Shown here piece after piece: positions 487 through 56,527 of a stretch of 64,000 nucleotides of DNA. Location of the stretch: assembly GCA_035370405.1 (NCBI GenBank), contig DAOOVT010000001.1, positions 485-64,484 on the forward strand. Reading direction: 5' to 3'. The notes under the pieces were generated by a model, which had not been told where the DNA came from, made no database searches, and was given only the letters and a program-made list of their open reading frames with translations. Positions within the stretch are counted from its first letter, which is position 1; the number at the start of each line of letters is the position of its first letter. A program made the position numbers and the translations under genes. Source of the stretch: Candidatus Dojkabacteria bacterium (lineage in GTDB: Bacteria > Patescibacteriota > Dojkabacteria > SC72).

Positions 487-1266
487 TTATTCTATATCAC
501 TCCAAACATTTTGAACATCATCATGTTCTTCTATTCTGCTTAATGCTTCGTTTACTTTATTAAGTTGTTCCTCCGTAAGTTTCTTTGTTACTCTTGCTTC
601 TTTTACCAATTCGGCATCTTTTAGAACTAGACCCAATTCTATTATCTTGTCTCTCACAGCTCCAAAATTTTCATATTTTGTGTACACAATAAAACCTTTC
701 TTCCCATCTTCTTCTATATCCTCAATATCGAGTACACCATCTAAGTCCATTAATGACAACATTACACTTTCAGGATCTTCCTCTACATATACGTCAGGTT
801 CTCCATACTTGGGTGATTTTTCCATATGTCCAGAATATATTTGTATATATCCTTTTGTTTCAAAATTCCAAGAGACTGCTCCATTCTCAGCCATATTTCC
901 TCCTATCTCTTCAAATATTTTTCTAAGATCAGCAACCGTTCTATTTTTGTTATCTGTTAATGTATCAACCACTATTTGAATTCCAAAAGGTCCAAATCCT
1001 TCATATGTTGCTTCTTCATATATGACTTTTTCTTCTCCCTCTCCCGTCCCTTTTTGAATAGCCTTCTCTATTTTATCCGTTGGAAATCCAAGTTCTTTCG
1101 CTTTCGCTATATGTAGACGAAGTGTTGGATTCATTTCTGGATCCCCACCACCTTGTTTCGCAGCATGCGATATTAAAGCAGATACCTTAGAGAAGCTTTT
1201 TCCTTTTTTAGCATCATTAATCGCTTTTTTGTGTTTAATTGTGTCCCATTTTGAATGTCCTGACAT
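487..1266 (-). CDS. yebC: YebC/PmpR family DNA-binding transcriptional regulator.
   Basis: The ORF track protein starts MSGHSKWDTIKHKK...GGGDPEMNPTLR at the internal Met, the hallmark YebC N-terminus. The ATG is at 1264-1266. Confidence 0.85.
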   Translation of the reverse strand: MSGHSKWDTIKHKKAINDAKKGKSFSKVSALISHAAKQGGGDPEMNPTLRLHIAKAKELGFPTDKIEKAIQKGTGEGEEKVIYEEATYEGFGPFGIQIVVDTLTDNKNRTVADLRKIFEEIGGNMAENGAVSWNFETKGYIQIYSGHMEKSPKYGEPDVYVEEDPESVMLSLMDLDGVLDIEDIEEDGKKGFIVYTKYENFGAVRDKIIELGLVLKDAELVKEARVTKKLTEEQLNKVNEALSRIEEHDDVQNVWSDIE

Positions 1267-1297
1267 AGTTTTTCCTTCGACACATATTTTACCACAA

Positions 1298-3784
1298 TTA
1301 TTGATGAGTATCAGCAGAAACTTCTTTTGACACAACTTCTTCTACCTCTTCTTGCTTTTTTTGATTATTCAACGAAATACTTCTATTACCCTTTTCGCTA
1401 TAGCTTTGATTACTCCATTTTGAAATTTTAGCCTCTATTTCTTCTTTTGACCTTCCATACTTAGTTCTGGAGAAATTGACTATTTCATCTCTTAATCCAA
1501 ACCTTTCATATCTGATTGGAAGTGATTTTGCACTAAATGGTACAGATGTCATTCCATCTATACATAGTTTTATATACATAGAGTATGCATCTAAGGAAAC
1601 TAAATCTCCTGCCGTTACCATTGGAGCAAATTCCTTTTCTAATATTGCAGCATCCGATTGGCTTACTACAAAAGATCCTAATGTTCCAACATTTCCAAAT
1701 ATTGCCTGTCTAACTGTTAAAGGAAGTTGATCTATATATTGGTTTGTCATTGTTAAATTAAGTTTGTATTTTCTAGCTTCTGAAAGTATTTTTGCAAATG
1801 ATTCTGTCGCAAAATTTTGAAACTCATCAACATACAAGAAGAAATCCTCTCTTTCCTCCTCAGGAATATCTACTCTTTCCATAGCAGTAGCCTGCAATCT
1901 TGTGATAATCATACCACCAAGCAAAGAGGCTGTTTCTTCGCCCAATTTCCCTTGTGCCAAATTAACAAGTAGTATTTTCTTGTTATCCATTATTTCCCTT
2001 AAGTCTATCGTTGATTTAACCTGTCCAATAATATTTCTTGTTACTGCGGAGGCTATGAATCTTCCAACCTTATTTTGTATTGGAGATACAGCTTCTGATA
2101 GCAATTTTGAATTTTGTGCCATTTTTGAAAACTCATCTGTCCAGAATTTGTACAATATCGGGTCATGTACCTGTTTTAGTATAAATTTTCGGTAGTTATT
2201 GTCTGTCAGAATTCTAGTAACAGCGAGAAGGGTTGTTCCTTGCGCTTCTAGTGCAGTAGCTACAGCATTAGTTAAGATATACTGAAGTCTAGGACCCCAT
2301 GAGTCTCCAAATTGCTTTTTAAATACCTCTACCACACCATCAGCTATTAAGTCTCTTTGTGATTTATCCTTAAGCTCAAGTAGGTTAAATCCAATAGGAT
2401 ATTCAACATCTGTCGGATTAAAATATACAACATCTTCTACCCTGTTAGGAGGAATATATTGCAGTAAATCCTCAACTGTATCTCCATGAGGGTCAACAAA
2501 ACAAGCTCCATCACCCGACAATACATCTGATATGAACATATTTTTAAACAGTGTAGATTTTCCACTTCCTGTTTTACCAAGAAGATAGAAATGCCTCTGT
2601 CTATCCTTTCTTTTCAGACCAAACTGGACTTTGACATCTCTATAGTCTGTTTCTCCAAATATTGTTACCCCATCATCTGTAGCTTTAGGCAAATTCATTG
2701 GAGGTTCCAATTTTCTTGCTCTACTCCAAGCTATATTTGGTGTTTCTACCGAAATATTTGGTAAATGATATACAGATGCTAATTCCTCAATATTCAAAAT
2801 GTCCTGTCCATCTTCCATATGCCTGCGAATATATTCATCATATATTTCTTTTCCAGATTTTGTTGGAGTAGCATGAATGAAATTATTAAGATGTGCTGTT
2901 GTGAACTGCTTAAAACTTGCAACTACATCACGTAAAATTTGCTCAGATCTAAATTGATCTTGTGCCTTCGATATTACCCTTATCTTAAATTCAAAACCAA
3001 CTTTTAGTGTCTTGTTCTCAATTTCACTTAATTCTTCTTCTTGCCCTGGAGCAAGCTTAACAACTTCTTTCTGAGGTTTCCCATCATCCGTTGTTGTTAA
3101 AGCCTTCCCTACTCCTCCAATTATCTTCCCTATTACTGCCCCGAAGGAATCTCCATTTGGATTCTTTCCTTCTTTTATCGCAGTGATATATTCCTTAGAT
3201 TTGGCCTGCCAATAGTTTGATACAGGCCTTATGATTATTTGAAGCCAAATTCCCTCTCCAATGTTTAATTTGGACATAGCACCAGTTATTGCAGCCAAAG
3301 GATCAACTTCAAAATTTCTAAAGGTTTTAATTGGAAAAATAGAATCTTTTTCCATTTCAATTTCACCTGCAGTAACAAAATTACCATTATCTCCAGTACT
3401 CTCCTTCGTATAGTCAGTAACAAGTTGAATATCTGCGTTAGGATATTGTGCATACACTTGCCCCTCTATAAACTTGGCAAGATGATTAGGAGCAACTATG
3501 TAAAATTTAATTCCTCCATCACTAACTGAGGCAATTTCTAGACTCACAAGATCTGTACATTTCTTATTTCCTTCTAAAATACCATGTATAGATGCAAACA
3601 TTTGTTCTGCCGCTAAAGCTGATTTATCATTTTCTCTAGGAACTAATATCTGCATAACACATGGATTTCTCAAATCTTCATAAATTTCAGCTTTTTCGAC
3701 GGTACTTCCTGCCCAAACCTTTAGAAAGGCTACAAAGAGAAGTGACATTACAAACAATATCAATATTACAATCAACATATGCAA
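1298..3784 (-). CDS. Membrane-anchored P-loop NTPase of the TraG/TraD/VirD4 coupling-protein-like (FtsK/HerA superfamily) type.
   Basis: An N-terminal TM helix (MHMLIVILILFVMSLLFVAF). Walker A is LLGKTGSGKST, followed by VDPHGD, which matches the DPxGE motif of T4SS coupling ATPases. Walker-B-like is FFLYVDEFQNF. Length 828 aa. Confidence 0.5.
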   Translation of the reverse strand: MHMLIVILILFVMSLLFVAFLKVWAGSTVEKAEIYEDLRNPCVMQILVPRENDKSALAAEQMFASIHGILEGNKKCTDLVSLEIASVSDGGIKFYIVAPNHLAKFIEGQVYAQYPNADIQLVTDYTKESTGDNGNFVTAGEIEMEKDSIFPIKTFRNFEVDPLAAITGAMSKLNIGEGIWLQIIIRPVSNYWQAKSKEYITAIKEGKNPNGDSFGAVIGKIIGGVGKALTTTDDGKPQKEVVKLAPGQEEELSEIENKTLKVGFEFKIRVISKAQDQFRSEQILRDVVASFKQFTTAHLNNFIHATPTKSGKEIYDEYIRRHMEDGQDILNIEELASVYHLPNISVETPNIAWSRARKLEPPMNLPKATDDGVTIFGETDYRDVKVQFGLKRKDRQRHFYLLGKTGSGKSTLFKNMFISDVLSGDGACFVDPHGDTVEDLLQYIPPNRVEDVVYFNPTDVEYPIGFNLLELKDKSQRDLIADGVVEVFKKQFGDSWGPRLQYILTNAVATALEAQGTTLLAVTRILTDNNYRKFILKQVHDPILYKFWTDEFSKMAQNSKLLSEAVSPIQNKVGRFIASAVTRNIIGQVKSTIDLREIMDNKKILLVNLAQGKLGEETASLLGGMIITRLQATAMERVDIPEEEREDFFLYVDEFQNFATESFAKILSEARKYKLNLTMTNQYIDQLPLTVRQAIFGNVGTLGSFVVSQSDAAILEKEFAPMVTAGDLVSLDAYSMYIKLCIDGMTSVPFSAKSLPIRYERFGLRDEIVNFSRTKYGRSKEEIEAKISKWSNQSYSEKGNRSISLNNQKKQEEVEEVVSKEVSADTHQ

Positions 3785-9596: not shown

Positions 9597-11507
9597 ATGA
9601 AATCAGTTTACAAGACAGTCACTACAGTCCTCATACTATTTTCTCTGATGATACATCCTTCTTTAGCATCTTCTAAAAAAGGAGACTTCATCATAGATAC
9701 AGATACTGAATTTTCATACACAACTGGAAATGACTATGTAACTGTAAAAACTGAGTATATTAGAGAAGTTCTAAACGAAAACTATTATCTACCTGCTCAA
9801 GGAGAAAGAATCTTCCATCTCCCAGATGCATCAGCAACATCTCAAGAAAAAGTAAATGAAGAAAGAGAATACAAACTCTCAACCCTTAAAGTTGTAAATG
9901 AACTTGGAACACCTTTGAAATATGAAGTAGAACAACTTAATATCGGAGAAGGAATCTACATTAAGGTTGGTAATTACCGAGACACTACTGTGAGTTCTCC
10001 ATACCATGTTACAGTGACATACAACACCCATGATTATGTCCTAAAGGCAGGAAATTACATAACCATAGTAGGAACATCTCTTCCAAAAGACATTAAATTT
10101 GAAGAGGTAGATGAGAACAATGGAACAACAACATATTACAACTATTATTTTAGAATAGTAACAGACAAAAATATTCCTCCGCTCAGCAAAATATTTCCCA
10201 AGTTTTCCAAATCAGAAAATAGCTCTCATGTATATTATGAATTTGCCCAAACTGACCGAATAGAAAATGCTCCTGTGCTAGAATTCGGAACAAATGCAAC
10301 ATACAAATTTGAACTTTCTTACACTACTCCCAAGACTGATAATATGACACCAACTGTGTATTCGGACATTTTCCAATCAGTATCTACTAATATATATGAG
10401 CTATCCCTTCCTAGAGAATTCTCTGAAACAAACCAACATGTTTACTTCGAGAATGTTTCCCCTCTTCCTAAAAGAATACATGTAGACAGTGAAGGAAACC
10501 TTTTAGCAACTTTCGAAGTACCAGCAAACAAAGAGAGTAATATAACAATAACAGGATATATCACTGTGCAGCAGAATGAATATGAAAAGCAAAATAACAA
10601 TGCTCTCTCAATAGAATTAACCGATTATTATTCTAAAATACAGCAATGGAGTACTTCAAATACCTATCTCAGACCCACAAAATTTTGGCAAAGTACTGAT
10701 CAATATATTGTACAAATTGCAAATTCTCTGCTTAAGGATCAAGCCACTTTACTCGATGTCATCAAAGCAGACTACAAGTTTGTGGGAGACACCTTAGAAT
10801 ATGACGATGAGAAAGCTAATTCTGATAACACAAGAATAGGTGCAGTTGCTGCCCTATCAGGTGGAAAATCAGTTTGTATGGAATACGCAGATTCGCTGAT
10901 TGCAATCCTAAGAGCACAAGGAATTCCTGCTAGAGCAGCACTAGGATACACCAATATTGTAGATCAAAGTGTTAAACAGATAAGGCACCAATGGGTTCAG
11001 ATATGGGTACCAGATTATGGATGGCTGTCAGTAGATCCAACATTTGAAAGCGAGAATATGAAAATAGGACCAATGATAGACAGAATACTCTGGGAAACAT
11101 TCAACGGAGATTCTCTTTCTAACATTATGATTTATTCTGCTGACAAGTTGCAAAATCTTAGTAATGAAGGCTTTTCATTAACAATATACTCTGCAGAAGA
11201 AACCTTCAATCCTGCCAACCTCATGACTTATACAGATTTACTAAAAGATCAACCAATAGAAAGTGCAGAGCAATACAGAGTATCCTACTGGTTAGACACT
11301 CTTCTAAAAGCCACTGTCCTAGGACGAGCCATACTCATCACAATACCAGTCATCATTTGTGTCTTAGTAGTTGTAATCATTATCACAATAATAAAAGAAA
11401 TTCGCAGAAAGATAAAAACAAAGAACATTAAAAGACAACTAACAAACAAAGACCAAAATGCAAACCTACTTAGGTATTCAGAAACTTCAGAAACTTCTAA
11501 AAAGTAA
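9597..11507 (+). CDS. Secreted transglutaminase-like cysteine-protease-domain protein with a C-terminal TM anchor.
   Basis: Signal peptide (MKSVYKTVTTVLILFSLMIHPSLASS). A Cys-His-Asp triad context (GGKSVCMEYADSL...RHQWVQIWVPDYGWLSVDPTF). C-terminal TM (ILITIPVIICVLVVVIIITII) and a basic tail. Confidence 0.7.
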   Translation: MKSVYKTVTTVLILFSLMIHPSLASSKKGDFIIDTDTEFSYTTGNDYVTVKTEYIREVLNENYYLPAQGERIFHLPDASATSQEKVNEEREYKLSTLKVVNELGTPLKYEVEQLNIGEGIYIKVGNYRDTTVSSPYHVTVTYNTHDYVLKAGNYITIVGTSLPKDIKFEEVDENNGTTTYYNYYFRIVTDKNIPPLSKIFPKFSKSENSSHVYYEFAQTDRIENAPVLEFGTNATYKFELSYTTPKTDNMTPTVYSDIFQSVSTNIYELSLPREFSETNQHVYFENVSPLPKRIHVDSEGNLLATFEVPANKESNITITGYITVQQNEYEKQNNNALSIELTDYYSKIQQWSTSNTYLRPTKFWQSTDQYIVQIANSLLKDQATLLDVIKADYKFVGDTLEYDDEKANSDNTRIGAVAALSGGKSVCMEYADSLIAILRAQGIPARAALGYTNIVDQSVKQIRHQWVQIWVPDYGWLSVDPTFESENMKIGPMIDRILWETFNGDSLSNIMIYSADKLQNLSNEGFSLTIYSAEETFNPANLMTYTDLLKDQPIESAEQYRVSYWLDTLLKATVLGRAILITIPVIICVLVVVIIITIIKEIRRKIKTKNIKRQLTNKDQNANLLRYSETSETSKK

Positions 11508-13005
11508 ATAACCTATCTATATCTAAGAAGCCTCTTCCTGCTAAAAGACGATTTTCTGTTGTCGCACATAATGTAAGTAAGGGTTCCCCTTTCTTCACAC
11601 TCTCTCCAGGCATTTTTTCTATACGAATTCCAGCCTCCTTTATAATAGGACTCCCTAAAGCTCTAGCTATAGTAACAAGAGAAACATTGTCTATTCTCTT
11701 AATTACACCATCTCTATCTGAAAGAAGTGAATATCTTAACTTTCCACCATGAATATCTGTAGAAACAACCCTTTTAGTTGCTCCCTGAGCAAAAGCTATT
11801 TCCCAAAACTTCTCTAAAGCTCTCCCAGAATCTAGTATCTCCTCTGCCATCTCTTTCCCCTCCCCTATCCTTGCCTTCTTAGTATTCTCAAAAATTTTTC
11901 CAGCCATCTCCAATATTACTTTCTCAAGTTCAAGACTCCTATTCTCTGTCCTTTCCAAAAGCCTAAGTGCTTCCCTTATTTCAAGATTGGGCCCTATACT
12001 CCTTCCATCAGGACCTTTAATTGGTCTCTTAATAGTCTCACATTCTATTCCGAATTTCTTAAAAAGCTTTCTAAATTGTCTATCTAGCATATCCACATCA
12101 TCAGGGCTCTCAACTTTTGAACCCTTTCCATATGGAAGATCTATGAGAACATTTGTTATTCCCATACAAACCTTCTTTGCAACAATACTCACCAGAACTT
12201 TCTGAAACTCTTGTATACGCAAAGACCTTTCTACATTAATAATCACATCATCTGCAGGAGACAATTTCAAAGACCCTCCCCAAAACATGCATCCTCCAGT
12301 CTTCTTCACTACATCTAAAACCTTGTCCTTATCCAAAGCTACAGGCATAACTACCTCCAAAATATCTGTAGTCCCAGCTGGAGAAGTAATAGCTCTCGTT
12401 GAAGTATTAGGGACAATTAAGCCACCCTCCACTAGTATGGGAACTAATGTAGGAGTTATAGCCTTCCCTGCAACACCACCTATTGAATGCTTATCTGCAA
12501 CTAAATCCCCATTTCCCCTTATCCCTTTAAAAGACAAAGTATCTCCAGATTCCGCCATCCCTTTAGTCATCCAGTAAATCTCATCATCATTAAAACCCGG
12601 ATTAAAAAAAGTCGATATAAAAAAGGCAATCTCCGTCTCTCTTAACTGCCTAGTACCAATATCCTTCATTATTCCTTCCAATTCATTTTTTGTAAGTGTC
12701 TTACCCATCAACTTCTTACTAATTGCATTAAGAGATGGACTTGGTTCATGCACATCAACAAAAATACTAGTCCCCTCATCTAAATCGTATTCCTTCCAAA
12801 TCTCTTCAAACAATCCTATACACCCTTCTGGAACCTTAGAATCCGTCTCCATCACATCAGCATACAACTCTACTTCTCCAAACCCTATCATTATCGATTC
12901 CCCTTCTCTAAACCCTATCCTTTCCGCATCTTTTCTATTCAAAACAATATTAAAATCATTATCTTCTCCCAAATCTAGATTTTTACTTTTCAAGTAGCAT
13001 CCCAT
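11497..13005 (-). CDS. AMP phosphorylase (archaeal-type DeoA-like thymidine phosphorylase family with an N-terminal extension).
   Basis: KHSIGGVAGKAITPTLVPILVEGG (the KHSTGG motif of the pyrimidine-nucleoside phosphorylase family). N-terminal domain IVLNRKDAERIGFREGESIMI is as in archaeal AMP phosphorylases. Confidence 0.75.
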   Translation of the reverse strand: MGCYLKSKNLDLGEDNDFNIVLNRKDAERIGFREGESIMIGFGEVELYADVMETDSKVPEGCIGLFEEIWKEYDLDEGTSIFVDVHEPSPSLNAISKKLMGKTLTKNELEGIMKDIGTRQLRETEIAFFISTFFNPGFNDDEIYWMTKGMAESGDTLSFKGIRGNGDLVADKHSIGGVAGKAITPTLVPILVEGGLIVPNTSTRAITSPAGTTDILEVVMPVALDKDKVLDVVKKTGGCMFWGGSLKLSPADDVIINVERSLRIQEFQKVLVSIVAKKVCMGITNVLIDLPYGKGSKVESPDDVDMLDRQFRKLFKKFGIECETIKRPIKGPDGRSIGPNLEIREALRLLERTENRSLELEKVILEMAGKIFENTKKARIGEGKEMAEEILDSGRALEKFWEIAFAQGATKRVVSTDIHGGKLRYSLLSDRDGVIKRIDNVSLVTIARALGSPIIKEAGIRIEKMPGESVKKGEPLLTLCATTENRLLAGRGFLDIDRLFTF

Positions 13006-13017
13006 TTATTTTATAGA

Positions 13018-13986
13018 TTAAATTAATTTATTAGAACTATTAACACTATCAAACATCCATGGATATTTAGCAAAAGCCTCCCGCTCCAAATCTTGAGGCT
13101 TTACTATTCCAGATTCAGTAACATATCCTGTAATCAATTCACTATCAACTATCTCAAAAGCAGGATTATACATCTCCAATTCAGCTGGAGCCTCACTCCA
13201 AAGTTCTCTGCTCTCTCTCACTTCTATTTTAGCAAACTTATCTGAACTCTTATCAAATTTAAGCATCGGAGAGACTACATACACTGGCTTATCTGCATAA
13301 TGGGCAGCCATGGCTATTCCCCAGCTACCAATCTTATTTATAGCATGCCCTCCCCTTGTTATTTGATCACACCCCAAAAATACAGCCTCTATTGGAACAT
13401 TACCTCTACCAATCACAAATGATTCTGCAGCACTATCTGCTATCATTGTCGTCTTAATCCTAGATTCAACAAGGCTTTTAGCTGTTTTCCTTCCTTGAAA
13501 CATTGGTCGTGTCTCTGTACAAACCACCTCAAATTTCTGATTCCCCTTTGCTAAAGACTTTATTAGTGAAACAGCGGTTGACGAATGACAATGTGTTAAA
13601 AGCTTATCAAAATGGGATAAATGTAATGTCCCAATACCAATCAAATCTCTTTTTGCCGTTTCAACCATGTCCAAATACTCATTACAAAGACTCTCAAGCT
13701 TTTGTTTCATAGTATCAACATATGGTAAAACAGAAAATTCCTTCTCAAAAGAATACTTAACAAATGTTACACCATTTCTAGCCAGTGGCTCATTCTCTCT
13801 GGTCTTAGCAAGCATATCCCCAACTTCAAAAAATTCATCTTTAAGCTTCTGTGAATCGTTTATCTCACTATTCTTCAGATACAACTTCATACCTTCGAAA
13901 CAAGCTATACACACATTAGTAGCCCCTTGTATGTTCAAATTTTTTATATCCTTTTGTATTTCTTCTATCTCGGCATATCTTTGCAT
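13018..13986 (-). CDS. eIF-2B alpha/beta/delta-family isomerase, likely ribose-1,5-bisphosphate isomerase.
   Basis: ETRPMFQGRKTAKSL...IADSAAESFV...AVFLGCDQITRGG is the eIF2B-like fold. It sits immediately downstream of the AMP phosphorylase. Confidence 0.55.
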   Translation of the reverse strand: MQRYAEIEEIQKDIKNLNIQGATNVCIACFEGMKLYLKNSEINDSQKLKDEFFEVGDMLAKTRENEPLARNGVTFVKYSFEKEFSVLPYVDTMKQKLESLCNEYLDMVETAKRDLIGIGTLHLSHFDKLLTHCHSSTAVSLIKSLAKGNQKFEVVCTETRPMFQGRKTAKSLVESRIKTTMIADSAAESFVIGRGNVPIEAVFLGCDQITRGGHAINKIGSWGIAMAAHYADKPVYVVSPMLKFDKSSDKFAKIEVRESRELWSEAPAELEMYNPAFEIVDSELITGYVTESGIVKPQDLEREAFAKYPWMFDSVNSSNKLI

Positions 13987-13995
13987 ATAATATTT

Positions 13996-15396
13996 TTACT
14001 CTAATCTAAATTCTTCCTGATAGTTTGGAATAGATATATCTATCTTAAACTCCTGCTTAATATTACTGGCAAAACTTTCTATGACATCTTCATCTCCATG
14101 AACCAAAAATATCTGTCTTGGAGAATGCCCAAACCCCCTCAGCCAATATCTCAAATCCCTTTGATCAGCATGCCCTGAAAATCCATTTAGAGTATATAGC
14201 TTCGCATTATTCTCCACCTCTGTTCCCATTATTCTCAAAATCTTCTCTCCATCAACAATTCTTCTTCCTAAAGTTCCTTTCACTTGGTATCCTACTATAA
14301 CCATACGAGTCTTTGGATCAGAAATATTATTCTTAATATGATGAACTATCCTTCCCCCATTGCACATTCCACTCCCAGCAATAATTGCTACGCCTTTCTT
14401 AGATATTAGTCTTTTCGATTCCTCCGCGGACTCTATTTTTATCAAACCTTCAAAATCAAATGGATCATCACCTTTCTTGAGAAGTCTTCTCGCATCCTCA
14501 TCATAGAAATCGGGATACCTTCTAAAAACTTCTGTCGCTTTGGACGCCATTGGACTATCGAGATAGACAGGCATTCCTGACAACAATCTATTTTCAAAAA
14601 ACAGGTTAATTTCGTACAGAACTTCCTGTGTCCTCTCTATAGCGAAGGAAGGTATAAGGACATTACCCCCTTCCTTTTGAGCCTCTTGCATTGCAGCAAG
14701 CAATTCTAAAACAGTTTCGTTTCTATCTTTATGCAATCTATTCCCATATGTAGATTCACAAATCACATAATCAGCCTCACGAATCATGTCCGTATCATTA
14801 ACTATTCTCGCTCCAGGCTGTCCTAGATCTCCAGAAAAAACCATCTTTCTTGTTCTTTCCGCCTCATTTTCTATCCAAAATTCAAATATTGATGAACCAA
14901 GAATATGGCCAGCATCTCTCATTCTAAACTCTAATTTTGGAGTTAGATTTACAGAATTTCCATATGGATACACTTCAAAGTACCTCATACATTCTTCCAC
15001 ATCTTGCTCTGTGAATAGCACTTTCTTCGTTGCTCCCTCCTCGCCTACTCCCTTACTCCTAGTCTCCCACCTCTTCATTTCCTCCTCCTGAAGATTGGCC
15101 GAATCTAAAAGAATTATTTTCGTTAAATCTCTCGTCGGCTGTGTACAAATTATCCTTCCTCTAAAACCTTGCTTAACAAGTTGTGGAATTCTACCAGAAT
15201 GATCAAAATGAGCATGTGTTAAGAACAAGAAATCTATATCTGCAGGATTAAACGGAAATGGATCATAGTTCATTTTTTCCAATTCCTCTCCTCCTTGAAA
15301 TGCTCCACAGTCAACAAGAAACTTAACCGAATCAGTTTGAACATAGAAGCATGACCCTGTTACAGTCTTTGTTGCTCCAAGAAATTGTATAGTCAT
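13996..15396 (-). CDS. MBL-fold beta-CASP RNA-metabolising hydrolase.
   Basis: LTHAHFDHSGRIP (HxHxDH metallo-beta-lactamase motif). A C-terminal beta-CASP-like region (LNGFSGHADQRDL). Confidence 0.7.
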   Translation of the reverse strand: MTIQFLGATKTVTGSCFYVQTDSVKFLVDCGAFQGGEELEKMNYDPFPFNPADIDFLFLTHAHFDHSGRIPQLVKQGFRGRIICTQPTRDLTKIILLDSANLQEEEMKRWETRSKGVGEEGATKKVLFTEQDVEECMRYFEVYPYGNSVNLTPKLEFRMRDAGHILGSSIFEFWIENEAERTRKMVFSGDLGQPGARIVNDTDMIREADYVICESTYGNRLHKDRNETVLELLAAMQEAQKEGGNVLIPSFAIERTQEVLYEINLFFENRLLSGMPVYLDSPMASKATEVFRRYPDFYDEDARRLLKKGDDPFDFEGLIKIESAEESKRLISKKGVAIIAGSGMCNGGRIVHHIKNNISDPKTRMVIVGYQVKGTLGRRIVDGEKILRIMGTEVENNAKLYTLNGFSGHADQRDLRYWLRGFGHSPRQIFLVHGDEDVIESFASNIKQEFKIDISIPNYQEEFRLE

Positions 15397-15450
15397 CTAG
15401 GCAGTAAATAAAATCTAAACTGATATATAATAGAGGATATCTTAATGTAA

Positions 15451-16887
15451 TTACAACTCTCCTCTATTTTTCTTCAAAGACAAGGCTTTTTTCACAAGCT
15501 CCTCTTTAGTATTGAGCATAGGATTATCTATAACCATATCTAGAAGTTCTCTAAGAATTAAACCCATTTCTGGACCTGTTTTTACTCCGATATTTGCTAA
15601 ATCATTCCCTGTTATCTTTAGATCGGTAACTTTCAGTGCCATATCTTTTTTCCTAACCTCAGATATCCTGTTTTGTAATTCTGTTATCTCCTCTGGACGG
15701 AAGTTAGAGCTTGAGTTTGAAATAGCATCTGCAAGTCTTAATTTGAAAAGATCTTCAATGTTTTCCTCCCCAACACGCTGTATAAACCTTCTTACTGCTG
15801 TATCACTCCACTCTTTTTCTCTAACTTTCTCTTTCTCCTCTTCTGACATATCTCCTTCTATGTGAGGATAATAGAACATATGGTTTAGTATCAATTTCTT
15901 AACCTTATTTATTTCATTTTGAGGGAATTTCATTCTTCTCATAATTTCTTCTGCCATTTTAGCTCCCATTAAGTCATGACCATAAAAATGTCCATTGTTC
16001 ATATCAGTTCGTGGTTTAGCTATATCATGCAGCAATGCAGCAAGTTTAACAGAATCATGAGCTACATCACATGTTTTAAGTGAATGCCAATACACATCAT
16101 CTGAATGATATAGTTTCTGTTGAACATTTATTCCCTCTAACAGTTCTGGCATGAACAAACTCAAAAGGCCTGTCTGTCTCATTAGCTCTATTCCTACCGA
16201 TGGTTTTGGTGAATTCAAAAGCATCTTCATAAACTCATCTCTAATTCTTTCCATAGAAACCATCGATGCTATAGGTAGAGATTGTTTAATTGCTTCAAAT
16301 GTTTCTTTCTCAATACTAAACCCATACTGAGATGCTAAGCGACAAGCCTTAAATGCTCTCAAACCATCTTCTTTAAATCTATCTATAGGTGTACCAACCG
16401 CCCTCACAAGCTTTTTTTGAATGTCTTCTATACCATTAAACGGATCATATATTTCGACCTCATATTTTTCCTTCCCACTCCCCAAATCAAGCAAACTTAA
16501 ATCAACAGCCATTGCATTAAATGTAAAATCCCTCCTTCCTAAATCTTTATCTATATCTTTCACAAATTTCACACTAGCAGGCCATCTACCATCGACATAA
16601 TCAGACTCACTCCTAAATGTTGTAACTTCAACTTCATGGGTTTCTCCAAACTCATCTTGTGCCAAAGCTATGACTGTACCAAATCGCACTCCAGTTGAAA
16701 CAGATTTAGGAAACAACTCTATCATCTCATCAGGCAGAGCATCAGTCGCTAAATCATAATCATGAGGATTTCCACCTATGACTATGTCTCTCAATGCCCC
16801 GCCAACCAAATAGCATTGATATCCATTATCTATTAACTTTTTAGCTGTGCTTTGCACATACTTTGGTATTGTTATTTCTATTTTCAT
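15451..16887 (-). CDS. cca: CCA-adding enzyme / tRNA nucleotidyltransferase with an HD domain.
   Basis: LVGGALRDIVIGGNPHDYDLAT (polymerase beta-like head). HD region LAALLHDIAKP. Start taken at MKIEIT. Confidence 0.8.
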   Translation of the reverse strand: MKIEITIPKYVQSTAKKLIDNGYQCYLVGGALRDIVIGGNPHDYDLATDALPDEMIELFPKSVSTGVRFGTVIALAQDEFGETHEVEVTTFRSESDYVDGRWPASVKFVKDIDKDLGRRDFTFNAMAVDLSLLDLGSGKEKYEVEIYDPFNGIEDIQKKLVRAVGTPIDRFKEDGLRAFKACRLASQYGFSIEKETFEAIKQSLPIASMVSMERIRDEFMKMLLNSPKPSVGIELMRQTGLLSLFMPELLEGINVQQKLYHSDDVYWHSLKTCDVAHDSVKLAALLHDIAKPRTDMNNGHFYGHDLMGAKMAEEIMRRMKFPQNEINKVKKLILNHMFYYPHIEGDMSEEEKEKVREKEWSDTAVRRFIQRVGEENIEDLFKLRLADAISNSSSNFRPEEITELQNRISEVRKKDMALKVTDLKITGNDLANIGVKTGPEMGLILRELLDMVIDNPMLNTKEELVKKALSLKKNRGEL

Positions 16888-18127
16888 AATTTTTCCTTTT
16901 TCTGACATAAGAATACCAAAGATACATATCAACAACAAGGAATATGATTAACTTTGTATTTTGTATAAATGTTTTTGGGAGAGAGAAATCCTCGGAATAT
17001 ACTCCAGATACCACCCCTTTTTCTTGCAAATCATTTTCTACAAGAAGATCCTCAAACATATAGTTCGGATTATTTTCAGGCATATTTGTAACATTATTAA
17101 TATCCTCACCGCTAGTTAAATCGACATACTCAATTGTATTTGAAGCCATGGTATACGGGATTATTGTTATACAGTAATTTCCTGTATTTGGATTCGTAAA
17201 TGCACCTCCTACAATCCCACCATCTAATCGGTAACTGAAAACAGGTACTGTATACAAACCTAATATCCTAAAATTCTCTTCTGCACCAACAGAGCATCTA
17301 GTAATACTATTTGGATTCTCTATGAAAATGTTTCCTAAATCGATTGCTCCTCCAGCATTTCTCACTGTACTATCTACCATATATTCTAATATTTTTTCTT
17401 CACCACCACTTAAGGTGAAATTTACAGAATAGTTCAGATGTCTTAGTACTAAATTTTCTAGTATATTGCTTGTATTATTCTTTACGGTTACTGCAATCTT
17501 AAAATTCTCTTCGCTTTTATCAACATGTATGTTTTCCATTTTCAAAGGATTTTTTACATACAACGAACCAATATTCATATTTCCTAATTCTCCATCCGCA
17601 ATTTTTGACACATCATCTATCTGAAGATATTTTCCATCTCTTACAAATGTTTGACCTGTCCTCAACATGCTTACACTCGTCTCCACGATATTCTCTTGTG
17701 TCTCAATTATCTCCGCTAAACCAAGATCCCCAGATAAATTAGAAGAAAGTGGTACTAAAATGTAGGAGAGATCAATTGCATGACCAGCACTGTTTTTATA
17801 CAAGTAGACTAAGTCTATTCTTGATTCTGGAGGAACAGATACTCTATCACCAATCCCTGGGATTGTTCTAGCACCATTAAAGTCAGTTACAGTATCAATA
17901 CTGTTAGAATCACGGAATGAAGAGGTGTCAACACCTATGATATTGTTTGTATCAAACTCAACTATCCTATTTATCTCAGATGATGGCAATGACCCTATTG
18001 TGTAAGCAACAGATTGATACAATCTATTTCCCGTATTATCTCCTGTATTATTAAACTCATCAGCTTGTACGATAGAAGGAAAAACTAGAAGAGCACCAAT
18101 CACCACCAGTATTTTTAAAAAATACAT
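16841..18127 (-). CDS. Secreted protein with a C-terminal TM anchor and a basic tail.
   Basis: Signal peptide MYFLKILVVIGALLVFPSIVQA. C-terminal TM LIIFLVVDMYLWYSY, then RKRKNYENR. Confidence 0.4.
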   Translation of the reverse strand: MYFLKILVVIGALLVFPSIVQADEFNNTGDNTGNRLYQSVAYTIGSLPSSEINRIVEFDTNNIIGVDTSSFRDSNSIDTVTDFNGARTIPGIGDRVSVPPESRIDLVYLYKNSAGHAIDLSYILVPLSSNLSGDLGLAEIIETQENIVETSVSMLRTGQTFVRDGKYLQIDDVSKIADGELGNMNIGSLYVKNPLKMENIHVDKSEENFKIAVTVKNNTSNILENLVLRHLNYSVNFTLSGGEEKILEYMVDSTVRNAGGAIDLGNIFIENPNSITRCSVGAEENFRILGLYTVPVFSYRLDGGIVGGAFTNPNTGNYCITIIPYTMASNTIEYVDLTSGEDINNVTNMPENNPNYMFEDLLVENDLQEKGVVSGVYSEDFSLPKTFIQNTKLIIFLVVDMYLWYSYVRKRKNYENRNNNTKVCAKHS

Positions 18128-18192
18128 AGATATGTTCCTGATAATTTAGCAGGAACATATTAATTTACTCACATTAAACTAAGATTAACTCT

Positions 18193-19839
18193 CTATGCTT
18201 TTTCCTTTATTCTAACCTTTTCGGTAACATAGAAATTCCTCTTGTACTTACCCAATCCTAGCATCATTTCTGTTACTGCTTGTACATATGGAATAAAGGA
18301 AAATGTAATCATATTTACAACTATCAAATATGTTTCTAAAAAATCCAGAACATATCTATACCATTTCCAACCTTTTGGAACAGGAGTTATTTTTCTCTTA
18401 AAAATCACTATTGCTATATTGGAAAGCATAATAATTGTGAAGACATAGCTAAGCATCTTTGGAAGATTATATGCGAACACTGTATATTGATAATCTTTAT
18501 TTAGTATCTGCATAATATTAAGACCAAAGGTAAGAACAAACACTACTGTTAGAAACCATAAATATTCAAGCATCATTTTCATCATAACTAACTTCCTTCT
18601 TGTTGGAAATTCATCTTTTTCTATAGATAGTTCTGCTAAAGTTATGGGATAGGTAATAATTCCCCAACCCCATCTGTACTGCTGTTTGTAAAAAGATACA
18701 TGAGACTTAACAAAATCTTCATTTTCAACAGCATCATTATATGTAGGAATGTACACAACCTCACTCTTGAATGTACCTTTACTTCGTGTCATAGAGTTCC
18801 AATAGAATGCAGTGTCATCATTTGGAATTTCGGGATCCCAAAATTCAATATCTTCTAATGTTTTTAGGTTGACAATGTATGAAGAAAAAGTTTCCTTTGA
18901 ACTTACCGTCTCCTTTGTAAAAGGTATTTTAAATGTCTGATCAAAAACCCATTGATGAAGCATTACAAGAGTAAGCATATTTGATTGATTTCTAATCAAT
19001 GGTGGAACATTCCATATGTTGTTATTAAATGTATGAACCGCAGAAGCATAGAATGTCATATTAGGATTCTCTGTAGTTAGATACTTATACATAACAGCAG
19101 ATAGATACTTCTCATGAGGTCTTAAATCAGAATCACATGTTATGAGCAGATATTTTGATATATCTTTACCTTCTTTTCTTAAATCCTCAACGAAGTGCCT
19201 AGAAGCCCAATTAATATTAGCACCCTTAACTCCTGATACCTCCCCTGGTATACCGCTTGGATGGATATAATAGTGCATACTCCCAAACTTCTTGCCATAC
19301 CTCTCTTTCAACTTCTTAAAATTCTCAATCTGAATATCCTGCTTTTTTTCTTCAATAGCCATAACAACATCAATCTTTTCTGCACCTATATCACTCTTTG
19401 ACCATGCTTTAAAAGAAGGATCCAGTATCTCTAAACTTTCAGAATATACTGGACATAAATACACAAACCGCATCTCTTTAAAAATCTTTTGCTTCTCTTT
19501 ACTTAATTTCTTTATTTCTGCTATCCAATCTGTTTCTAAATCCCTTTCCATCCGCTTAATTCCTATCCAGTCACCGATAACAAACTTCACTGTTCTAAAG
19601 AACCAGTACGCTACCAAGAAGGATATGTATATAACAAGAGCAGTATTAAGCTTAAATATTGCGAATATCACTGGAAGAAGCAAAAGAGTCCAAACATATA
19701 AACCTGGAAGTATTTCAAAAAACCTCCTTTTAGCATTCGACATTTGAACTGGGAATCCGCCATCTTTATCTTTTGGCTTATAGATATTGTCAGAATTAAC
19801 AACATTATCTTTTTTCATTTCCATACAGTAGTATATCAC
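18193..19839 (-). CDS. Membrane-embedded processive family-2 glycosyltransferase (cellulose/chitin/hyaluronan-synthase-like).
   Basis: N-terminal and C-terminal TM helices. ITCDSDLRP is DxD-like. QQYRWGWG matches the Q(Q/R)xRW motif of processive GT2 synthases. Confidence 0.65.
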   Translation of the reverse strand: MIYYCMEMKKDNVVNSDNIYKPKDKDGGFPVQMSNAKRRFFEILPGLYVWTLLLLPVIFAIFKLNTALVIYISFLVAYWFFRTVKFVIGDWIGIKRMERDLETDWIAEIKKLSKEKQKIFKEMRFVYLCPVYSESLEILDPSFKAWSKSDIGAEKIDVVMAIEEKKQDIQIENFKKLKERYGKKFGSMHYYIHPSGIPGEVSGVKGANINWASRHFVEDLRKEGKDISKYLLITCDSDLRPHEKYLSAVMYKYLTTENPNMTFYASAVHTFNNNIWNVPPLIRNQSNMLTLVMLHQWVFDQTFKIPFTKETVSSKETFSSYIVNLKTLEDIEFWDPEIPNDDTAFYWNSMTRSKGTFKSEVVYIPTYNDAVENEDFVKSHVSFYKQQYRWGWGIITYPITLAELSIEKDEFPTRRKLVMMKMMLEYLWFLTVVFVLTFGLNIMQILNKDYQYTVFAYNLPKMLSYVFTIIMLSNIAIVIFKRKITPVPKGWKWYRYVLDFLETYLIVVNMITFSFIPYVQAVTEMMLGLGKYKRNFYVTEKVRIKEKA

Positions 19840-21939: not shown

Positions 21940-23154
21940 ATGAAATCTACCCAAGTACATAAAATAATGAGTTTGTTTGTATCTCTCGCAGTACTTCCTA
22001 CACTCTTAATACCTGTACATGCAACTGATTTAAATTCTGCAAATTACAAAATTGTCGGAATAACAACAAATTCTGGTGGAGGCATTGCCAATTCAACTAA
22101 CTACAAATTAATGACAATAACAGGAGAAATATCTGCCAATCCAAGTAGTTACTCATCATCATACAAAATGAATTTAGATCCTTCTGCCAATTTTGTGGCA
22201 GAGATTCCAACCTTACAATGCTTTGAAACAAATACAGGAACAGGAGCTACTCAATGCACATCAGCACCAGCAGAAGTATTGAGCGGAGGTATGCAGGCTG
22301 TATGCGGACAGCCTGGATGCTACGATAGAGCAAGATTTGAAATAAATCCAATGACTAATCCTTCAGATACACTATATAGTGTAGAAATATCAACTGATAG
22401 TTTTGTCAGCGATATTAAGTGTATAAATGCCTCAACATTTACTCCTAAGACTGACTCTTGTAACATCAATGACTTTAGAACTGAGAGCTATTGGGAAAAT
22501 GAGCTATTTAATATTGTAGGACTTACATCGGGAACTACATACTATATTAGAGTAACTGCCCTTCATGGGGATTTTACTCAATCCAATTATTCAAAAACTT
22601 TGCAAGCGACAACATCCCCTGCTTCAATTACTTTTGATATTGATGTCGCAGATGTTAATGGAACTTCTGCAGAATCTAATTCACCCTACTCTATCTCCTT
22701 TTCAGGTTCAGATAAATTGACTTCAGGAGCTTTTGCGGTAACAGCACATAATTTAATATGGCTTGATTTAGATACTAATGCATATGGGGGAGCATCTGTT
22801 ATACAATTTGGCAAGAATGGTGGACTATACAGTCCAACTACTACATACAAAATAATTTCTGCTAATGAAGACCTTGATGTCATGAATGCAGAAGGTTTTG
22901 GATTTCAAAGTCACTATATTAATTTTACAAATAGCTCTAGTTTAACTGGAAGTATTACTGCAGAAGCCAATTATGCTGGTAGTGGAAATATTGTAGGAAT
23001 AATTGGACAAAATGCACTCCGTATATATCTAGCTGATGGAGCTATAGCAAATGGACGAATGGGAATTTATTTGAAGGCAAGAGCAGGAATGTCTGCTCCT
23101 CCAGCTACTGACTATGGAGAGGATATTTTCTTCACAGTTGTACCGTTATATTAA
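21940..23154 (+). CDS. Secreted protein of unknown function with short SxNYK repeats.
   Basis: Signal peptide MKSTQVHKIMSLFVSLAVLPTLLIPVHA. Repeats NSANYKIVG / NSTNYKLMT / SSYKMNL. It has its own promoter. Confidence 0.4.
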   Translation: MKSTQVHKIMSLFVSLAVLPTLLIPVHATDLNSANYKIVGITTNSGGGIANSTNYKLMTITGEISANPSSYSSSYKMNLDPSANFVAEIPTLQCFETNTGTGATQCTSAPAEVLSGGMQAVCGQPGCYDRARFEINPMTNPSDTLYSVEISTDSFVSDIKCINASTFTPKTDSCNINDFRTESYWENELFNIVGLTSGTTYYIRVTALHGDFTQSNYSKTLQATTSPASITFDIDVADVNGTSAESNSPYSISFSGSDKLTSGAFAVTAHNLIWLDLDTNAYGGASVIQFGKNGGLYSPTTTYKIISANEDLDVMNAEGFGFQSHYINFTNSSSLTGSITAEANYAGSGNIVGIIGQNALRIYLADGAIANGRMGIYLKARAGMSAPPATDYGEDIFFTVVPLY

Positions 23155-23217
23155 GAAATTTTGCCTCCCCCTTAGTAATTAGTAATTTAGTAATATTGTT
23201 AATACCACTACAAAAAT

Positions 23218-23246
23218 TTGACATCATACTCACCAATAGTATATAT
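23218..23246 (+). promoter_or_regulatory. Near-consensus sigma70-type promoter upstream of the 23285 gene.
   Basis: TTGACA, a 16-17 nt spacer, then TATATA/ATATAT, about 40 nt upstream of the ATG. A TTAGTAA x3 tandem mini-repeat precedes it. Confidence 0.5.
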
Positions 23247-23284
23247 TTTTAATATTAAATAAAATGTCTGCCTAAAATACGCAT

Positions 23285-24421
23285 ATGAAAAAGAAGAAGC
23301 TCCTCGGTAACTTCAAAGGGTTTCTAACTTTAGCCTTAGTGGCTATCCTTTTGACCAGTTCGTTTGTATTCAAATCAAATGCAAACGCTTTAACATCAGC
23401 CTATCTGTATCTAAGCCGAATGAAGGTAAATATTACGGGAGCAGGAGCAGATACGCTTGAATACGTATTGGCATTCTCTACTTCTCAGACTATTCCAACT
23501 GGCGGAACGGTTACTTTGACTTTTCCTGACGACGATGATGGATTTTGGTGTAAGACGGCTGGAGCATTAACCGTTACAGGAGTAACTTCATCTTCTTCTG
23601 ATCTAGCTGGTACAAATTGGGCTATTGATGCTGCTCTACCAGCTGCAACAACCTTAACCGCATCATGTACTAAAGGATCAGGTGCAGGATCCGCAGACAA
23701 GATCACTATATCAAGTGTTGGAGCAATTTCTACTAGTACCACATATGGAGTAAAGCTCGCTAATGGAACAACAGCTGGGGTACTTGGTACTGATGACACT
23801 GCAGGGAATCACAATGTAACAATAGAGGTTAGAAATGGTACAGTTTCTGATTCTTCTACATTTGGTATTCGACTTATTGCAGATGATAGGGTTGTCATAT
23901 CAGCTACAGTTTCTGCAACTCCGTCTGTAACTTGCTCACTGAGTACAAATACAGTGAATCTTGGTTCACTTTACCCAGGGGGAGCCTTCACAACAGGACA
24001 ACATACAATTTCAACAACTACATCCGATACTGCTGGTGGATATTACTGGGCTGTATATGGTACAGGAAATGGTACAGATGCTGGACTTTACAAGAGTTCT
24101 GCAACAACATATTTAATACCATCAACTGGTTCTACAACTGTAGACCTAAGAGGAGTTGGAACTGAAGGTTTTGGAATGACTGCGTCTGATCCTGATGCAG
24201 CTTCGTCTGCAACAGTTTCTGCTAACTTTAGTGATGGGACATTGGGAGTTTTTGGAGCTTTAGACCCCGGAGTTTCAGGAGCTAAGCTTCTTCTGTCTCA
24301 ACAAGGAGCGCAAACATCAGCTGAGTCGTCTACAATTACATATGGTGCCAAAGCAGGAGCTTCAGCACAAACTGGGTCATATCAAGAAACAGTGACATTT
24401 ATATGTGGTGGTTACTATTAG
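23285..24421 (+). CDS. Secreted Thr/Ser/Gly/Ala-rich surface protein.
   Basis: Sec-type signal peptide with an ANA cleavage site. Extremely T/S/G-rich mature region. No LPxTG, and no pilin-type Glu at +5. Confidence 0.4.
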   Translation: MKKKKLLGNFKGFLTLALVAILLTSSFVFKSNANALTSAYLYLSRMKVNITGAGADTLEYVLAFSTSQTIPTGGTVTLTFPDDDDGFWCKTAGALTVTGVTSSSSDLAGTNWAIDAALPAATTLTASCTKGSGAGSADKITISSVGAISTSTTYGVKLANGTTAGVLGTDDTAGNHNVTIEVRNGTVSDSSTFGIRLIADDRVVISATVSATPSVTCSLSTNTVNLGSLYPGGAFTTGQHTISTTTSDTAGGYYWAVYGTGNGTDAGLYKSSATTYLIPSTGSTTVDLRGVGTEGFGMTASDPDAASSATVSANFSDGTLGVFGALDPGVSGAKLLLSQQGAQTSAESSTITYGAKAGASAQTGSYQETVTFICGGYY

Positions 24422-24440
24422 ACTAATATGAGGCAAATAC

Positions 24441-51606: not shown

Positions 51607-51627
51607 TAAAATTAAAAATATTCAGAT

Positions 51628-56525: not shown

Positions 56526-56527
56526 AT

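Follow-up and report, generated by a model that had tools for sequence, protein, structure and literature searches.

A predicted archaeal-type AMP pathway gene pair and its form III-like RuBisCO partner in a Dojkabacteria genome

The studied genome of an uncultivated Dojkabacteria bacterium (WS6, CPR/Patescibacteria) carries two adjacent genes, an eIF2B-family gene (e2b2) and a deoA-like gene, which very probably encode the first two enzymes of an archaeal-type AMP (pentose-bisphosphate) pathway feeding RuBisCO. The same reading of the pair as the first two steps of AMP salvage had been put forward in a preliminary description of this DNA, and it is supported here by conserved residues, trees, matches to solved structures, and the presence of RuBisCO in the genome. 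The catalytic activities and substrates of the pathway enzymes are predicted; directly observed are the protein families, the conservation of active sites, the order of the genes, a RuBisCO in the same genome, and adjacency or fusion of RuBisCO in homologues. In the proposed pathway, the phosphorylase would cleave nucleoside 5'-monophosphates (NMPs) with phosphate, releasing the free base and forming ribose-1,5-bisphosphate (R15P), the isomerase would convert the latter to ribulose-1,5-bisphosphate (RuBP) via Cys133 and Asp207, and the form III-like RuBisCO would add CO2 and water to yield two 3-phosphoglycerate molecules that would enter lower glycolysis.

The occurrence of the pathway in some CPR bacteria, also mentioned in the preliminary description, has been published for Dojkabacteria. 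Wrighton 2016 (PMC5113843) and Jaffe 2019 (PMC6389311) describe it in the same phylum, with the same deoA, e2b2 and form III-related RuBisCO genes, deoA and e2b2 being adjacent and RuBisCO being located elsewhere in the genome; thus, the finding is correct but ordinary. For instance, WS6_GWE2_33_157 (locus L039), listed with a III-like RuBisCO in PMC5113843, has the same gene order, and its isomerase and phosphorylase are 55% and 58% identical to those described here. Homologues bear the name Candidatus Dojkabacteria, and the present genome belongs to a species-level lineage different from the published ones, with the best match among GTDB representatives showing 68% isomerase identity.

Gene organization and the RuBisCO of the same genome

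Coordinates of the candidate pathway genes and their upstream neighbour (positions in the window, i.e., the whole 64-kb stretch of DNA that was analysed)
Feature	Coordinates	Strand	Length	Remarks
Beta-CASP metallo-beta-lactamase ribonuclease	13996..15396	-	466 aa	Lactamase_B, Beta-Casp and RMMBL domains
Isomerase ORF, eIF2B-family (e2b2)	13018..13986	-	322 aa	Ribose-1,5-bisphosphate isomerase candidate; transcribed first
Phosphorylase ORF, deoA-like, archaeal type	11497..13005	-	502 aa	AMP/NMP phosphorylase candidate

The region 11497-13986 is filled by two minus-strand ORFs at the positions originally claimed for them; both have strong family matches and are not chance ORFs, and the gap between them is 12 nt. 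The phosphorylase had been described as directly followed by the isomerase, which holds in plus-strand coordinates only, since the order is reversed in the direction of transcription. No terminator-like site was found within 11000-18500, and co-transcription of the pair with the upstream beta-CASP gene is probable.

An active-site motif search, tblastn with a CPR RuBisCO, and Pfam scans of RuBisCO-sized ORFs detected no RuBisCO within the window, bearing out the earlier statement to that effect. A 466-aa RuBisCO gene is located 5.8 kb past the right end of the window on three independent public contigs, two of which are 100% identical to window positions 51396-64000 (12,605 nt) and the third of which differs by one base. 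Thus located on the same chromosome stretch, the RuBisCO gene is ~56 kb away from the isomerase/phosphorylase pair and is not in their operon.

The catalytic motifs of this RuBisCO are all intact. The form III model gives the protein 384 bits, which is below the form III equivalog cut-off of 497, and the form II model gives 188 bits. Its closest solved structures are archaeal form III enzymes. Form II/III RuBisCOs are in overall similarity nearest to form II (Wrighton 2016), and by these scores and structures a form II/III assignment was rejected. The protein is at most 43% identical to the collected III-c-type and other form III-related sequences and has two 11-residue insertions relative to them. 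Form III-like RuBisCOs are described as divergent from archaeal form III and as having ~11-residue insertions (Wrighton 2016, PMC5113843; Jaffe 2019, PMC6389311). The RuBisCO is related to form III, and form III-like is the type that fits best, as judged by the published description rather than by tree placement. The preliminary description had expected the pair to feed a form II/III RuBisCO encoded in the genome; a RuBisCO is indeed encoded there, and the partner found instead fits the form III-like type.

Elsewhere among CPR bacteria, and in Bathyarchaeia, homologues of the isomerase are found beside RuBisCO or fused with it. The e2b2, RuBisCO and deoA genes are adjacent in CPR loci L047, L049 and L053 and in ~30 Bathyarchaeia loci, and proteins with fused IF-2B and RuBisCO domains exist (e.g., P0201, 35% identity). 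In relatives from the Dojkabacteria whose isomerase is 55% or more identical, RuBisCO never lies within 10 kb of the pair, and Jaffe et al. [quoted passage not shown] Both observations would suit an alternative scenario, in which the same two enzymes act without carboxylation of RuBP, the latter being directed by a haloarchaeal-type RuBP phosphatase to a ribulose-1-phosphate aldolase, or in which the enzymes serve mainly for base recycling; a pentose-bisphosphate pathway of this type is known in haloarchaea (PMC9700705). We consider this scenario very unlikely, as a RuBisCO with the full set of catalytic motifs is encoded just outside the window, and neither a HAD phosphatase nor a class II aldolase was seen among the annotated ORFs of the window.

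Assignment of the phosphorylase and the isomerase

The phosphorylase contains the three-domain core of the thymidine phosphorylase (TP) family (Pfam domains Glycos_trans_3N, Glycos_transf_3 and PYNP_C, all above their gathering scores). Its match to the NCBIfam AMP_phos model (442.7 bits, E = 1.5e-132) compares with 121-185 bits for the bacterial TP/PyNP models, and its match to the AMP phosphorylase of Thermococcus kodakarensis (4GA5, 287.6 bits) with 111 bits for bacterial PyNP. The former score is below the curated equivalog cut-off of AMP_phos (TIGR03327, 535 bits); the broader subfamily model NF003338 is passed with 441.8 bits at a cut-off of 434. Residues 16-487 of the phosphorylase align with residues 13-477 of 4GA5, and thus the extra N-terminal domain of the latter protein is covered too; this domain comprises about 84 residues in archaeal-type AMP phosphorylases and about 90 in the present protein. 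This extension had been considered typical of archaeal AMP phosphorylases; the alignment confirms that it is real, but it is also present in long TP-family proteins encoded on proteobacterial plasmids. The phosphorylase is 38% identical to the T. kodakarensis enzyme and 23% to Escherichia coli DeoA. On the NJ tree, it falls into a clade with the AMP phosphorylases from T. kodakarensis, Natrialba, Bathyarchaeia and Odinarchaeota, which excludes both the DeoA of E. coli and the long TP-family proteins of proteobacteria and has 73% bootstrap support, a moderate value in a distance-based tree. Grouping with bacterial thymidine phosphorylases, named in the preliminary description as the contrary outcome, was thus not observed.

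The long TP-family proteins are encoded in a proteobacterial gene triad (e.g., on Caulobacter and Sphingobium plasmids) together with a preceding beta-CASP hydrolase, which is homologous to the beta-CASP protein in the window (34% identity, E = 4e-88), and a ribose-phosphate pyrophosphokinase. Their match to the phosphorylase (32-36% identity) spans the whole protein, the N-terminal domain among the rest, and the Caulobacter protein reaches 471 bits on the AMP_phos model. One could therefore suppose that the phosphorylase is a functional equivalent of these uncharacterised proteins and that its substrate may not be an NMP. This appears very unlikely, given that the phosphorylase clusters with the archaeal AMP phosphorylases instead and has e2b2 as its genomic partner, joined in relatives by RuBisCO, whereas in the triad a Prs-like kinase takes the place of e2b2, the phosphorylases form a separate clade, and no RuBisCO was seen nearby. 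Moreover, the proteobacterial proteins may be NMP phosphorylases themselves, in which case the two readings would not truly compete.

The isomerase matches the IF-2B family (PF01008, E = 7.5e-57), and among solved structures it matches the R15P isomerases 5YFJ and 3A11 best (107-110 bits), compared with 82-88 bits for methylthioribose-1-phosphate isomerases (MtnA). The catalytic residues C133 and D207 (Cys133 and Asp202 in T. kodakarensis numbering) are present and are invariant across 23 homologues. In the R15P isomerase from Pyrococcus horikoshii, Ser137 and Lys240 bind the 5-phosphate, and Arg22, Arg65, Gln166 and Lys215 bind the 1-phosphate (PMC5789824). Eight of the nine distinct ligand-contacting side chains of that enzyme are kept. 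These include the 5-phosphate binders S135 and K243, at whose positions all nine MtnA references have Ala/Thr and Thr/Ser, respectively, and the 1-phosphate binders R63, Q164 and K218. The exception is Arg22, replaced by Gln20; since Gln at this position is universal across the clade of CPR and Bathyarchaeia proteins, including the RuBisCO-fused P0201, we regard it as a clade trait and not as a sign of decay. In P. horikoshii, seven residues at the interface of the trimer form an AMP/GMP activation site (R124, R190, K194, N209, R229, W231, D290); none of them is kept in the isomerase, which by sequence alignment has H122, E188, I192, G212, D232, P234 and T286 at these positions.

MtnA proteins (Bacillus subtilis 2YVK and others) share with the isomerase the PF01008 fold, the catalytic Cys and Asp, and the equivalents of Arg65, Gln166 and Lys215. 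However, the isomerase has the R15P-isomerase signature C-H-S with Lys243: QGAT replaces the RGAP of MtnA, C-H-S-S replaces C-N-[AT]-G, and the 5-phosphate-binding Lys replaces Thr/Ser. It also lacks the N-terminal extension of MtnA, as the alignments start at residue 6-8 of the isomerase and at residue 31-60 of the MtnA chains. On the NJ tree, MtnA is monophyletic to the exclusion of the isomerase in 100% of 1000 bootstraps, and the MtnA grouping that the preliminary description had offered as a contrary result is thus absent. A sister relationship between the isomerase clade and the characterised R15P isomerases of Thermococcales appears in only 2.7% of bootstraps, and the NJ tree does not resolve the deep branching among the CPR/Bathyarchaeia clade, Thermococcales R15P isomerases, MtnA, and the single outgroup. 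It is extremely improbable that the isomerase is an MtnA of methionine salvage placed by chance next to an ordinary pyrimidine-nucleoside/thymidine phosphorylase: the top NCBIfam model of the isomerase, with 173.1 bits, is the broad subfamily TIGR00524, which mentions MtnA in its description, the MtnA models (137-144 bits, cut-offs 271-279) score little under ribulose_e2b2 (TIGR00511, 159.3 bits, itself below the curated equivalog cut-off of 314.1), and many homologues bear the PGAP-type names 'translation initiation factor eIF-2B' or 'thymidine phosphorylase', but the tree, the motifs and the low identity of the phosphorylase to DeoA speak against it, as does the adjacency of the pair, which is conserved, along with RuBisCO, in both CPR bacteria and archaea.

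[quoted passage not shown] The identity is low for both the phosphorylase (see above) and the isomerase (27-29%), and the present system differs in the Arg22 to Gln replacement, the activation site, the RuBisCO insertions (two of 11 residues), and in belonging to a bacterium.

A beta-CASP ribonuclease as a putative operon partner

The gene 9 nt upstream of the isomerase gene encodes a beta-CASP protein, whose closest solved structure is the Thermus thermophilus ribonuclease TTHA0252 (292 bits). In almost every Dojkabacteria locus with an available upstream flank, a beta-CASP gene directly precedes e2b2, and it does so in loci L058, L084, L095 and L098 too; Dojkabacteria share this conserved gene order with a further lineage of Patescibacteria. 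The beta-CASP ribonuclease gene is therefore a probable operon partner of the pair, and its product might supply the pathway with nucleoside 5'-monophosphates from RNA. No mention of a link between beta-CASP proteins and the AMP pathway was found in the available portions of PMC5113843 and PMC6389311 or in a wider literature search, and this link is possibly the only point of the present analysis that could be new. We tentatively put forward, as a doubtful but conceivable arrangement, a three-gene module of beta-CASP ribonuclease, R15P isomerase and NMP phosphorylase, in which the output of the TTHA0252-like RNase would pass straight to the phosphorylase. In that case, what really supplies the RuBisCO route with carbon and energy would be RNA, possibly scavenged from a host. 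Beta-CASP and long TP-family genes are also paired in the further Patescibacteria lineage and, with a Prs-like kinase replacing the isomerase, on proteobacterial plasmids, which hints that a broader unit of nucleotide catabolism, as yet undescribed, may exist; in Bradyrhizobium, one beta-CASP/TP-family/Prs triad, bll3115-3117, is induced under microoxia (PMC6515984).

The isomerase and phosphorylase gene pair

The window is AT-rich (~35% G+C), has a strong strand bias and, apart from the pair, encodes otherwise housekeeping functions. The preliminary description reported a pair of genes at 11497-13986, and this observation was confirmed by two long minus-strand ORFs, a PF01008 match in one product and thymidine phosphorylase (TP) family domains in the other (see the table below). 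The genes are separated by a 12-nt spacer, and the isomerase gene e2b2 precedes the phosphorylase gene deoA in the direction of transcription. A promoter scan of the window gave 27 sites, no excess over the 26.3 expected from shuffled sequence, and was left unused; no terminator-like site was found within 11000-18500. A convergent gene for a transglutaminase-core protein overlaps the 3' end of deoA by 11 nt and is kept in those loci of relatives that have gene tables.

Coordinates of the features discussed in the text (window positions, unless a contig or locus is named)
Feature	Coordinates	Strand	Remarks
ORF	487-1335		used for leftward extension
Transglutaminase-core protein, 636 aa	9597-11507	+	
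TP-family protein (deoA), 502 aa	11497..13005	-	all three family domains
IF-2B/eIF2B-family protein (e2b2), 322 aa	13018..13986	-	PF01008, E = 7.5e-57
TTHA0252-like beta-CASP metallo-beta-lactamase	13996-15396	-	directly upstream of e2b2
Four consecutive ORFs	21940-26336	+	404, 378, 326 and 304 aa; no or weak Pfam match
Ribosomal protein S2, 416 aa	39524-40774	-	
Membrane protein, ligase and peptidase cluster	54413-61379		
MreB-like protein	61396-62415		
RuBisCO large subunit, 466 aa	L107:1206-2606 (window-equivalent ~69810-71210)	-	between ProRS and ArgRS genes
e2b2-RuBisCO fusion genes	L109:4989-8392; L111:6001-9407		
e2b2 homologue, 769 aa	L051:8765-11074		

The closest named homologues of the isomerase belong to Candidatus Dojkabacteria (WS6), a candidate phyla radiation (CPR) phylum. 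The source samples are from digesters. Proteins identical to those of the window are carried by metagenome contigs JGI 3300010348, JGI 3300009710 and ENA ERZ724020, and locus L001 matches the window at 99.99% identity across 21.5 kb. Among GTDB species representatives, a set from which the genome of the window is absent, the best isomerase match is 68%. A look-up of ORF 487-1335, aimed at extending the window leftward, returned no exact match on record.

The profile scores of the isomerase are by themselves ambiguous as to family: eIF-2B_rel gave 173 bits, ribulose_e2b2 159 bits and the models of methylthioribose-1-phosphate isomerase (MtnA) 137-144 bits, every one below its cut-off. The alternative that the protein is an MtnA was rejected by structure scores, phylogeny and ligand-contact residues. 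Among solved structures, the ribose-1,5-bisphosphate (R15P) isomerases 5YFJ and 3A11 score 107-110 bits versus 82-88 bits for MtnA; the alignment begins at residue 6-8 of the former and only at residue 31-60 of the MtnA chains, thus the MtnA N-terminal extension is absent. In a neighbour-joining tree of 52 sequences (bootstrapped in a numpy implementation, as was the phosphorylase tree; references taken from PDB alignments and PGAP-annotated mtnA genes), the nine MtnA references are monophyletic without the window isomerase in 100% of 1000 bootstraps. The latter clusters with sequences from CPR, Bathyarchaeia, Odinarchaeota and Woesearchaeota in a clade that is specifically sister to the Thermococcales enzymes in only 2.7% of bootstraps, the deep branches not being resolved.

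The ligand contacts known from the Pyrococcus horikoshii structures (PMC5789824) were carried over to the window isomerase via sequence alignment. The catalytic Cys135 and Asp204 (C133 and D207 in the window isomerase) and the 1-phosphate contacts Arg65, Gln166 and Lys215 (R63, Q164 and K218) are kept here and in the MtnA references, whereas the 5-phosphate contacts Ser137 and Lys240, conserved as S135 and K243, are replaced in MtnA by Ala or Thr and by Thr or Ser, respectively. At the position of the 1-phosphate contact Arg22, the MtnA references have Arg and the window isomerase has Gln20. The RGAP and C-N-[AT]-G motifs of MtnA read QGAT and C-H-S-S in the window isomerase. As judged from the alignment, the Gln at the Arg22 position is a clade trait, being universal throughout the isomerase's clade, RuBisCO-fused members included. 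None of the seven side chains of the activator AMP site of the Pyrococcus enzyme is kept (H122, E188, I192, G212, D232, P234 and T286 occupy these positions), thus the CPR enzymes probably lack AMP activation or have it in another form, and the regulation of the isomerase probably differs from that in Pyrococcus. A non-enzymatic eIF2B-like regulator is excluded, as the catalytic Cys and Asp are present, unlike in the Halarchaeum eIF2B-like protein. The JGI annotation of homologues already reads ribose 1,5-bisphosphate isomerase. Two e2b2 homologues carry long N-terminal extensions: ~390 residues, Asn/Gln/Ser-rich and without Pfam match, in the 734-aa protein P0123 (42% identical), and ~450 residues in the 769-aa ORF of locus L051 (38% identical).

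The phosphorylase scores 442.7 bits with the NCBIfam model AMP_phos, short of the equivalog cut-off of 535, and passes the cut-off of the subfamily model NF003338 (441.8 bits versus 434); models of bacterial thymidine and pyrimidine-nucleoside phosphorylases (PyNPs) gave only 121-185 bits. Its best solved structure is the AMP phosphorylase of Thermococcus kodakarensis (287.6 bits, versus 111 bits for bacterial PyNPs), and it is 38% identical to this enzyme versus 23% to DeoA. In a neighbour-joining tree with 500 bootstraps it belongs to a CPR clade (98%) that groups with the archaeal AMP phosphorylases of T. kodakarensis, Natrialba, Bathyarchaeia and Odinarchaeota (73%); Escherichia coli DeoA and three long TP-family proteins from proteobacterial plasmids remain outside. 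An ordinary thymidine phosphorylase was rejected on the basis of this grouping. The alignment with the T. kodakarensis structure starts at residue 16 and takes in the extra N-terminal domain. This domain had been described as typical of archaeal AMP phosphorylases; it is not exclusive to them, being shared by the proteobacterial plasmid proteins, which are annotated as 'thymidine phosphorylase family protein' and match the phosphorylase across 93-98% of its length. Since the T. kodakarensis enzyme accepts all natural NMPs (PMC8376864), the substrate here is best viewed as NMPs in general.

RuBisCO and the probable nucleotide salvage pathway

The window itself has no RuBisCO, as previously stated: none was detected with an active-site regular expression, with a CPR RuBisCO domain as tblastn query or by scanning candidate ORFs against Pfam. 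A look-up of the MreB-like protein led to three independent contigs (L105, L106 and L107), two of which, L105 and L107, match window positions 51396-64000 at 100.000% (12,605 nt, zero mismatch), L106 being one base off. All three run on identically for 8,415 nt more and encode TrpRS, a PEGA-domain protein, UvrA, ProRS, the RuBisCO large subunit and ArgRS. The genome search proposed in the preliminary description has located the RuBisCO gene, 5.8 kb beyond the right end of the window, at ~56 kb from e2b2.

The RuBisCO carries catalytic-residue motifs as in archaeal form III (AAESSTGTWT, TVPKPKVG, IKDDENLTS, the His/Arg active-site motif AIHAHRAMH, SGGLHPG and GGGVLGHP). The form II/III type expected as the partner of the pair does not fit, since the form III model scores 384 bits (cut-off 497) versus 188 bits for form II. 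The protein shares at most 43% identity with the sequences collected for comparison, which are of III-c type or otherwise form III-related, and has two 11-residue insertions relative to them. Insertions of mostly 11 residues are described for the 'form III-like' group of WS6 and other CPR in two earlier studies (PMC5113843, PMC6389311), and the RuBisCO fits this group by its match to the published description. The published genome WS6_GWE2_33_157, which has the same gene order as the window and a 55% identical isomerase, is listed with a III-like RuBisCO in PMC5113843.

Linkage with RuBisCO was also observed in homologues. A representative search retrieved P0201, a 726-aa protein 35% identical to the window isomerase that combines IF-2B, RuBisCO_large_N and RuBisCO_large domains, and dozens of e2b2-RuBisCO fusions of this kind were found; such fusions were reported by Jaffe et al. 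(PMC6389311). Among 80 loci taken from representative genomes, RuBisCO directly adjoins e2b2 and deoA in three bacterial loci, recorded as Saccharibacteria (L047), Dojkabacteria (L049) and 'bacterium' only (L053), and likewise in about 30 Bathyarchaeia loci. This constitutes strong association evidence that the isomerase family acts on the RuBisCO substrate. Loci whose isomerase is at least 55% identical all lack a RuBisCO within 10 kb of the pair. Searches with form III-c RuBisCO proteins found no match on the long contigs bearing close e2b2 relatives, which is uninformative because the window's lineage has another RuBisCO type. In a Gottesmanbacteria genome and a related one (L109 and L111), the gene after the fusion is a short deoA (423 and 389 aa, respectively) without the N-terminal domain, an arrangement already described by Jaffe et al., 2019 (PMC6389311).

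[quoted passage not shown] In the original interpretation, the pair and the pathway stand; the RuBisCO form needs correcting, and the N-terminal domain is not exclusive. The AMP pathway of this phylum is correctly found and already known. Wrighton et al., 2016 (PMC5113843) named Dojkabacteria, proposed for them a route from AMP phosphorylase via R15P isomerase and RuBisCO to 3-PGA and on to acetate and ATP, and checked the CPR isomerase as R15P-specific; they also complemented a Rhodobacter strain deficient in RuBisCO with the enzyme of Peregrinibacteria. Jaffe et al., 2019 (PMC6389311) extended the pathway across CPR and DPANN, and a 2023 study again reported the three genes in Dojkabacteria MAGs. 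The surprise for specialists is low, since one more lineage joins a published pattern. In PMC5113843, Dojkabacteria are described as devoid of upper glycolysis and the pentose phosphate pathway, the flow of nucleotide ribose to RuBisCO being thought a main energy route. As predicted from its genes, the small-genome and probably symbiotic bacterium of the window would be able to convert nucleotide ribose to 3-phosphoglycerate via RuBisCO.

The upstream beta-CASP ribonuclease gene

The gene located 9 nt upstream of e2b2 encodes a beta-CASP protein whose best solved relative is the Thermus thermophilus ribonuclease TTHA0252 (292 bits). A homologue directly precedes e2b2 in almost all Dojkabacteria loci that extend far enough upstream, including L047 and L053, where RuBisCO adjoins the pair; its distance upstream is 0.7-1.5 kb in L042 and L049. 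The arrangement recurs in L058, L084, L095 and L098, which belong to a different lineage of Patescibacteria. No beta-CASP gene is found next to the Gottesmanbacteria fusions (L109 and L111) or in the Bathyarchaeia loci. In Caulobacter and Sphingobium plasmids (L101 and L102), the gene of a beta-CASP hydrolase runs into the 5' end of a long TP-family gene, and a Prs-like kinase gene comes next; the hydrolase from Caulobacter and the window protein share 34% identity (E = 4e-88). The corresponding trio of Bradyrhizobium is co-induced under microoxia (PMC6515984).

A beta-CASP ribonuclease freeing 5'-NMPs would be well suited to feed the AMP pathway, and gene order suggests that the upstream enzyme may provide its nucleotides. 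The conservation inside Dojkabacteria could be plain inherited synteny. In the literature searched, no paper connects AMP phosphorylase to a beta-CASP enzyme or to a ribonuclease, and of all leads only the ribonuclease link has some novelty. If true, it would tie RNA degradation directly to the AMP pathway and could suggest what the uncharacterised proteobacterial triad (beta-CASP hydrolase, TP-family protein and Prs) does.

Other features of the window

Ribosomal protein S2 ends in a domain that matches the C-terminal domain of the RNA polymerase alpha subunit (PF03118) and has a helix-hairpin-helix motif, an unusual fusion that is recorded with the same architecture on a JGI contig. The cluster preceding the MreB-like gene encodes a 7TM transglutaminase-like membrane protein, four consecutive ATP-grasp (RimK/GARS_A-like) ligases and a convergent MATCAP-family peptidase, which suggests a system for peptide or protein-tail ligation and trimming. 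At the four consecutive ORFs the GC skew differs from that elsewhere in the window, and one of their products has a faint WxL-interacting peptidoglycan-binding match.
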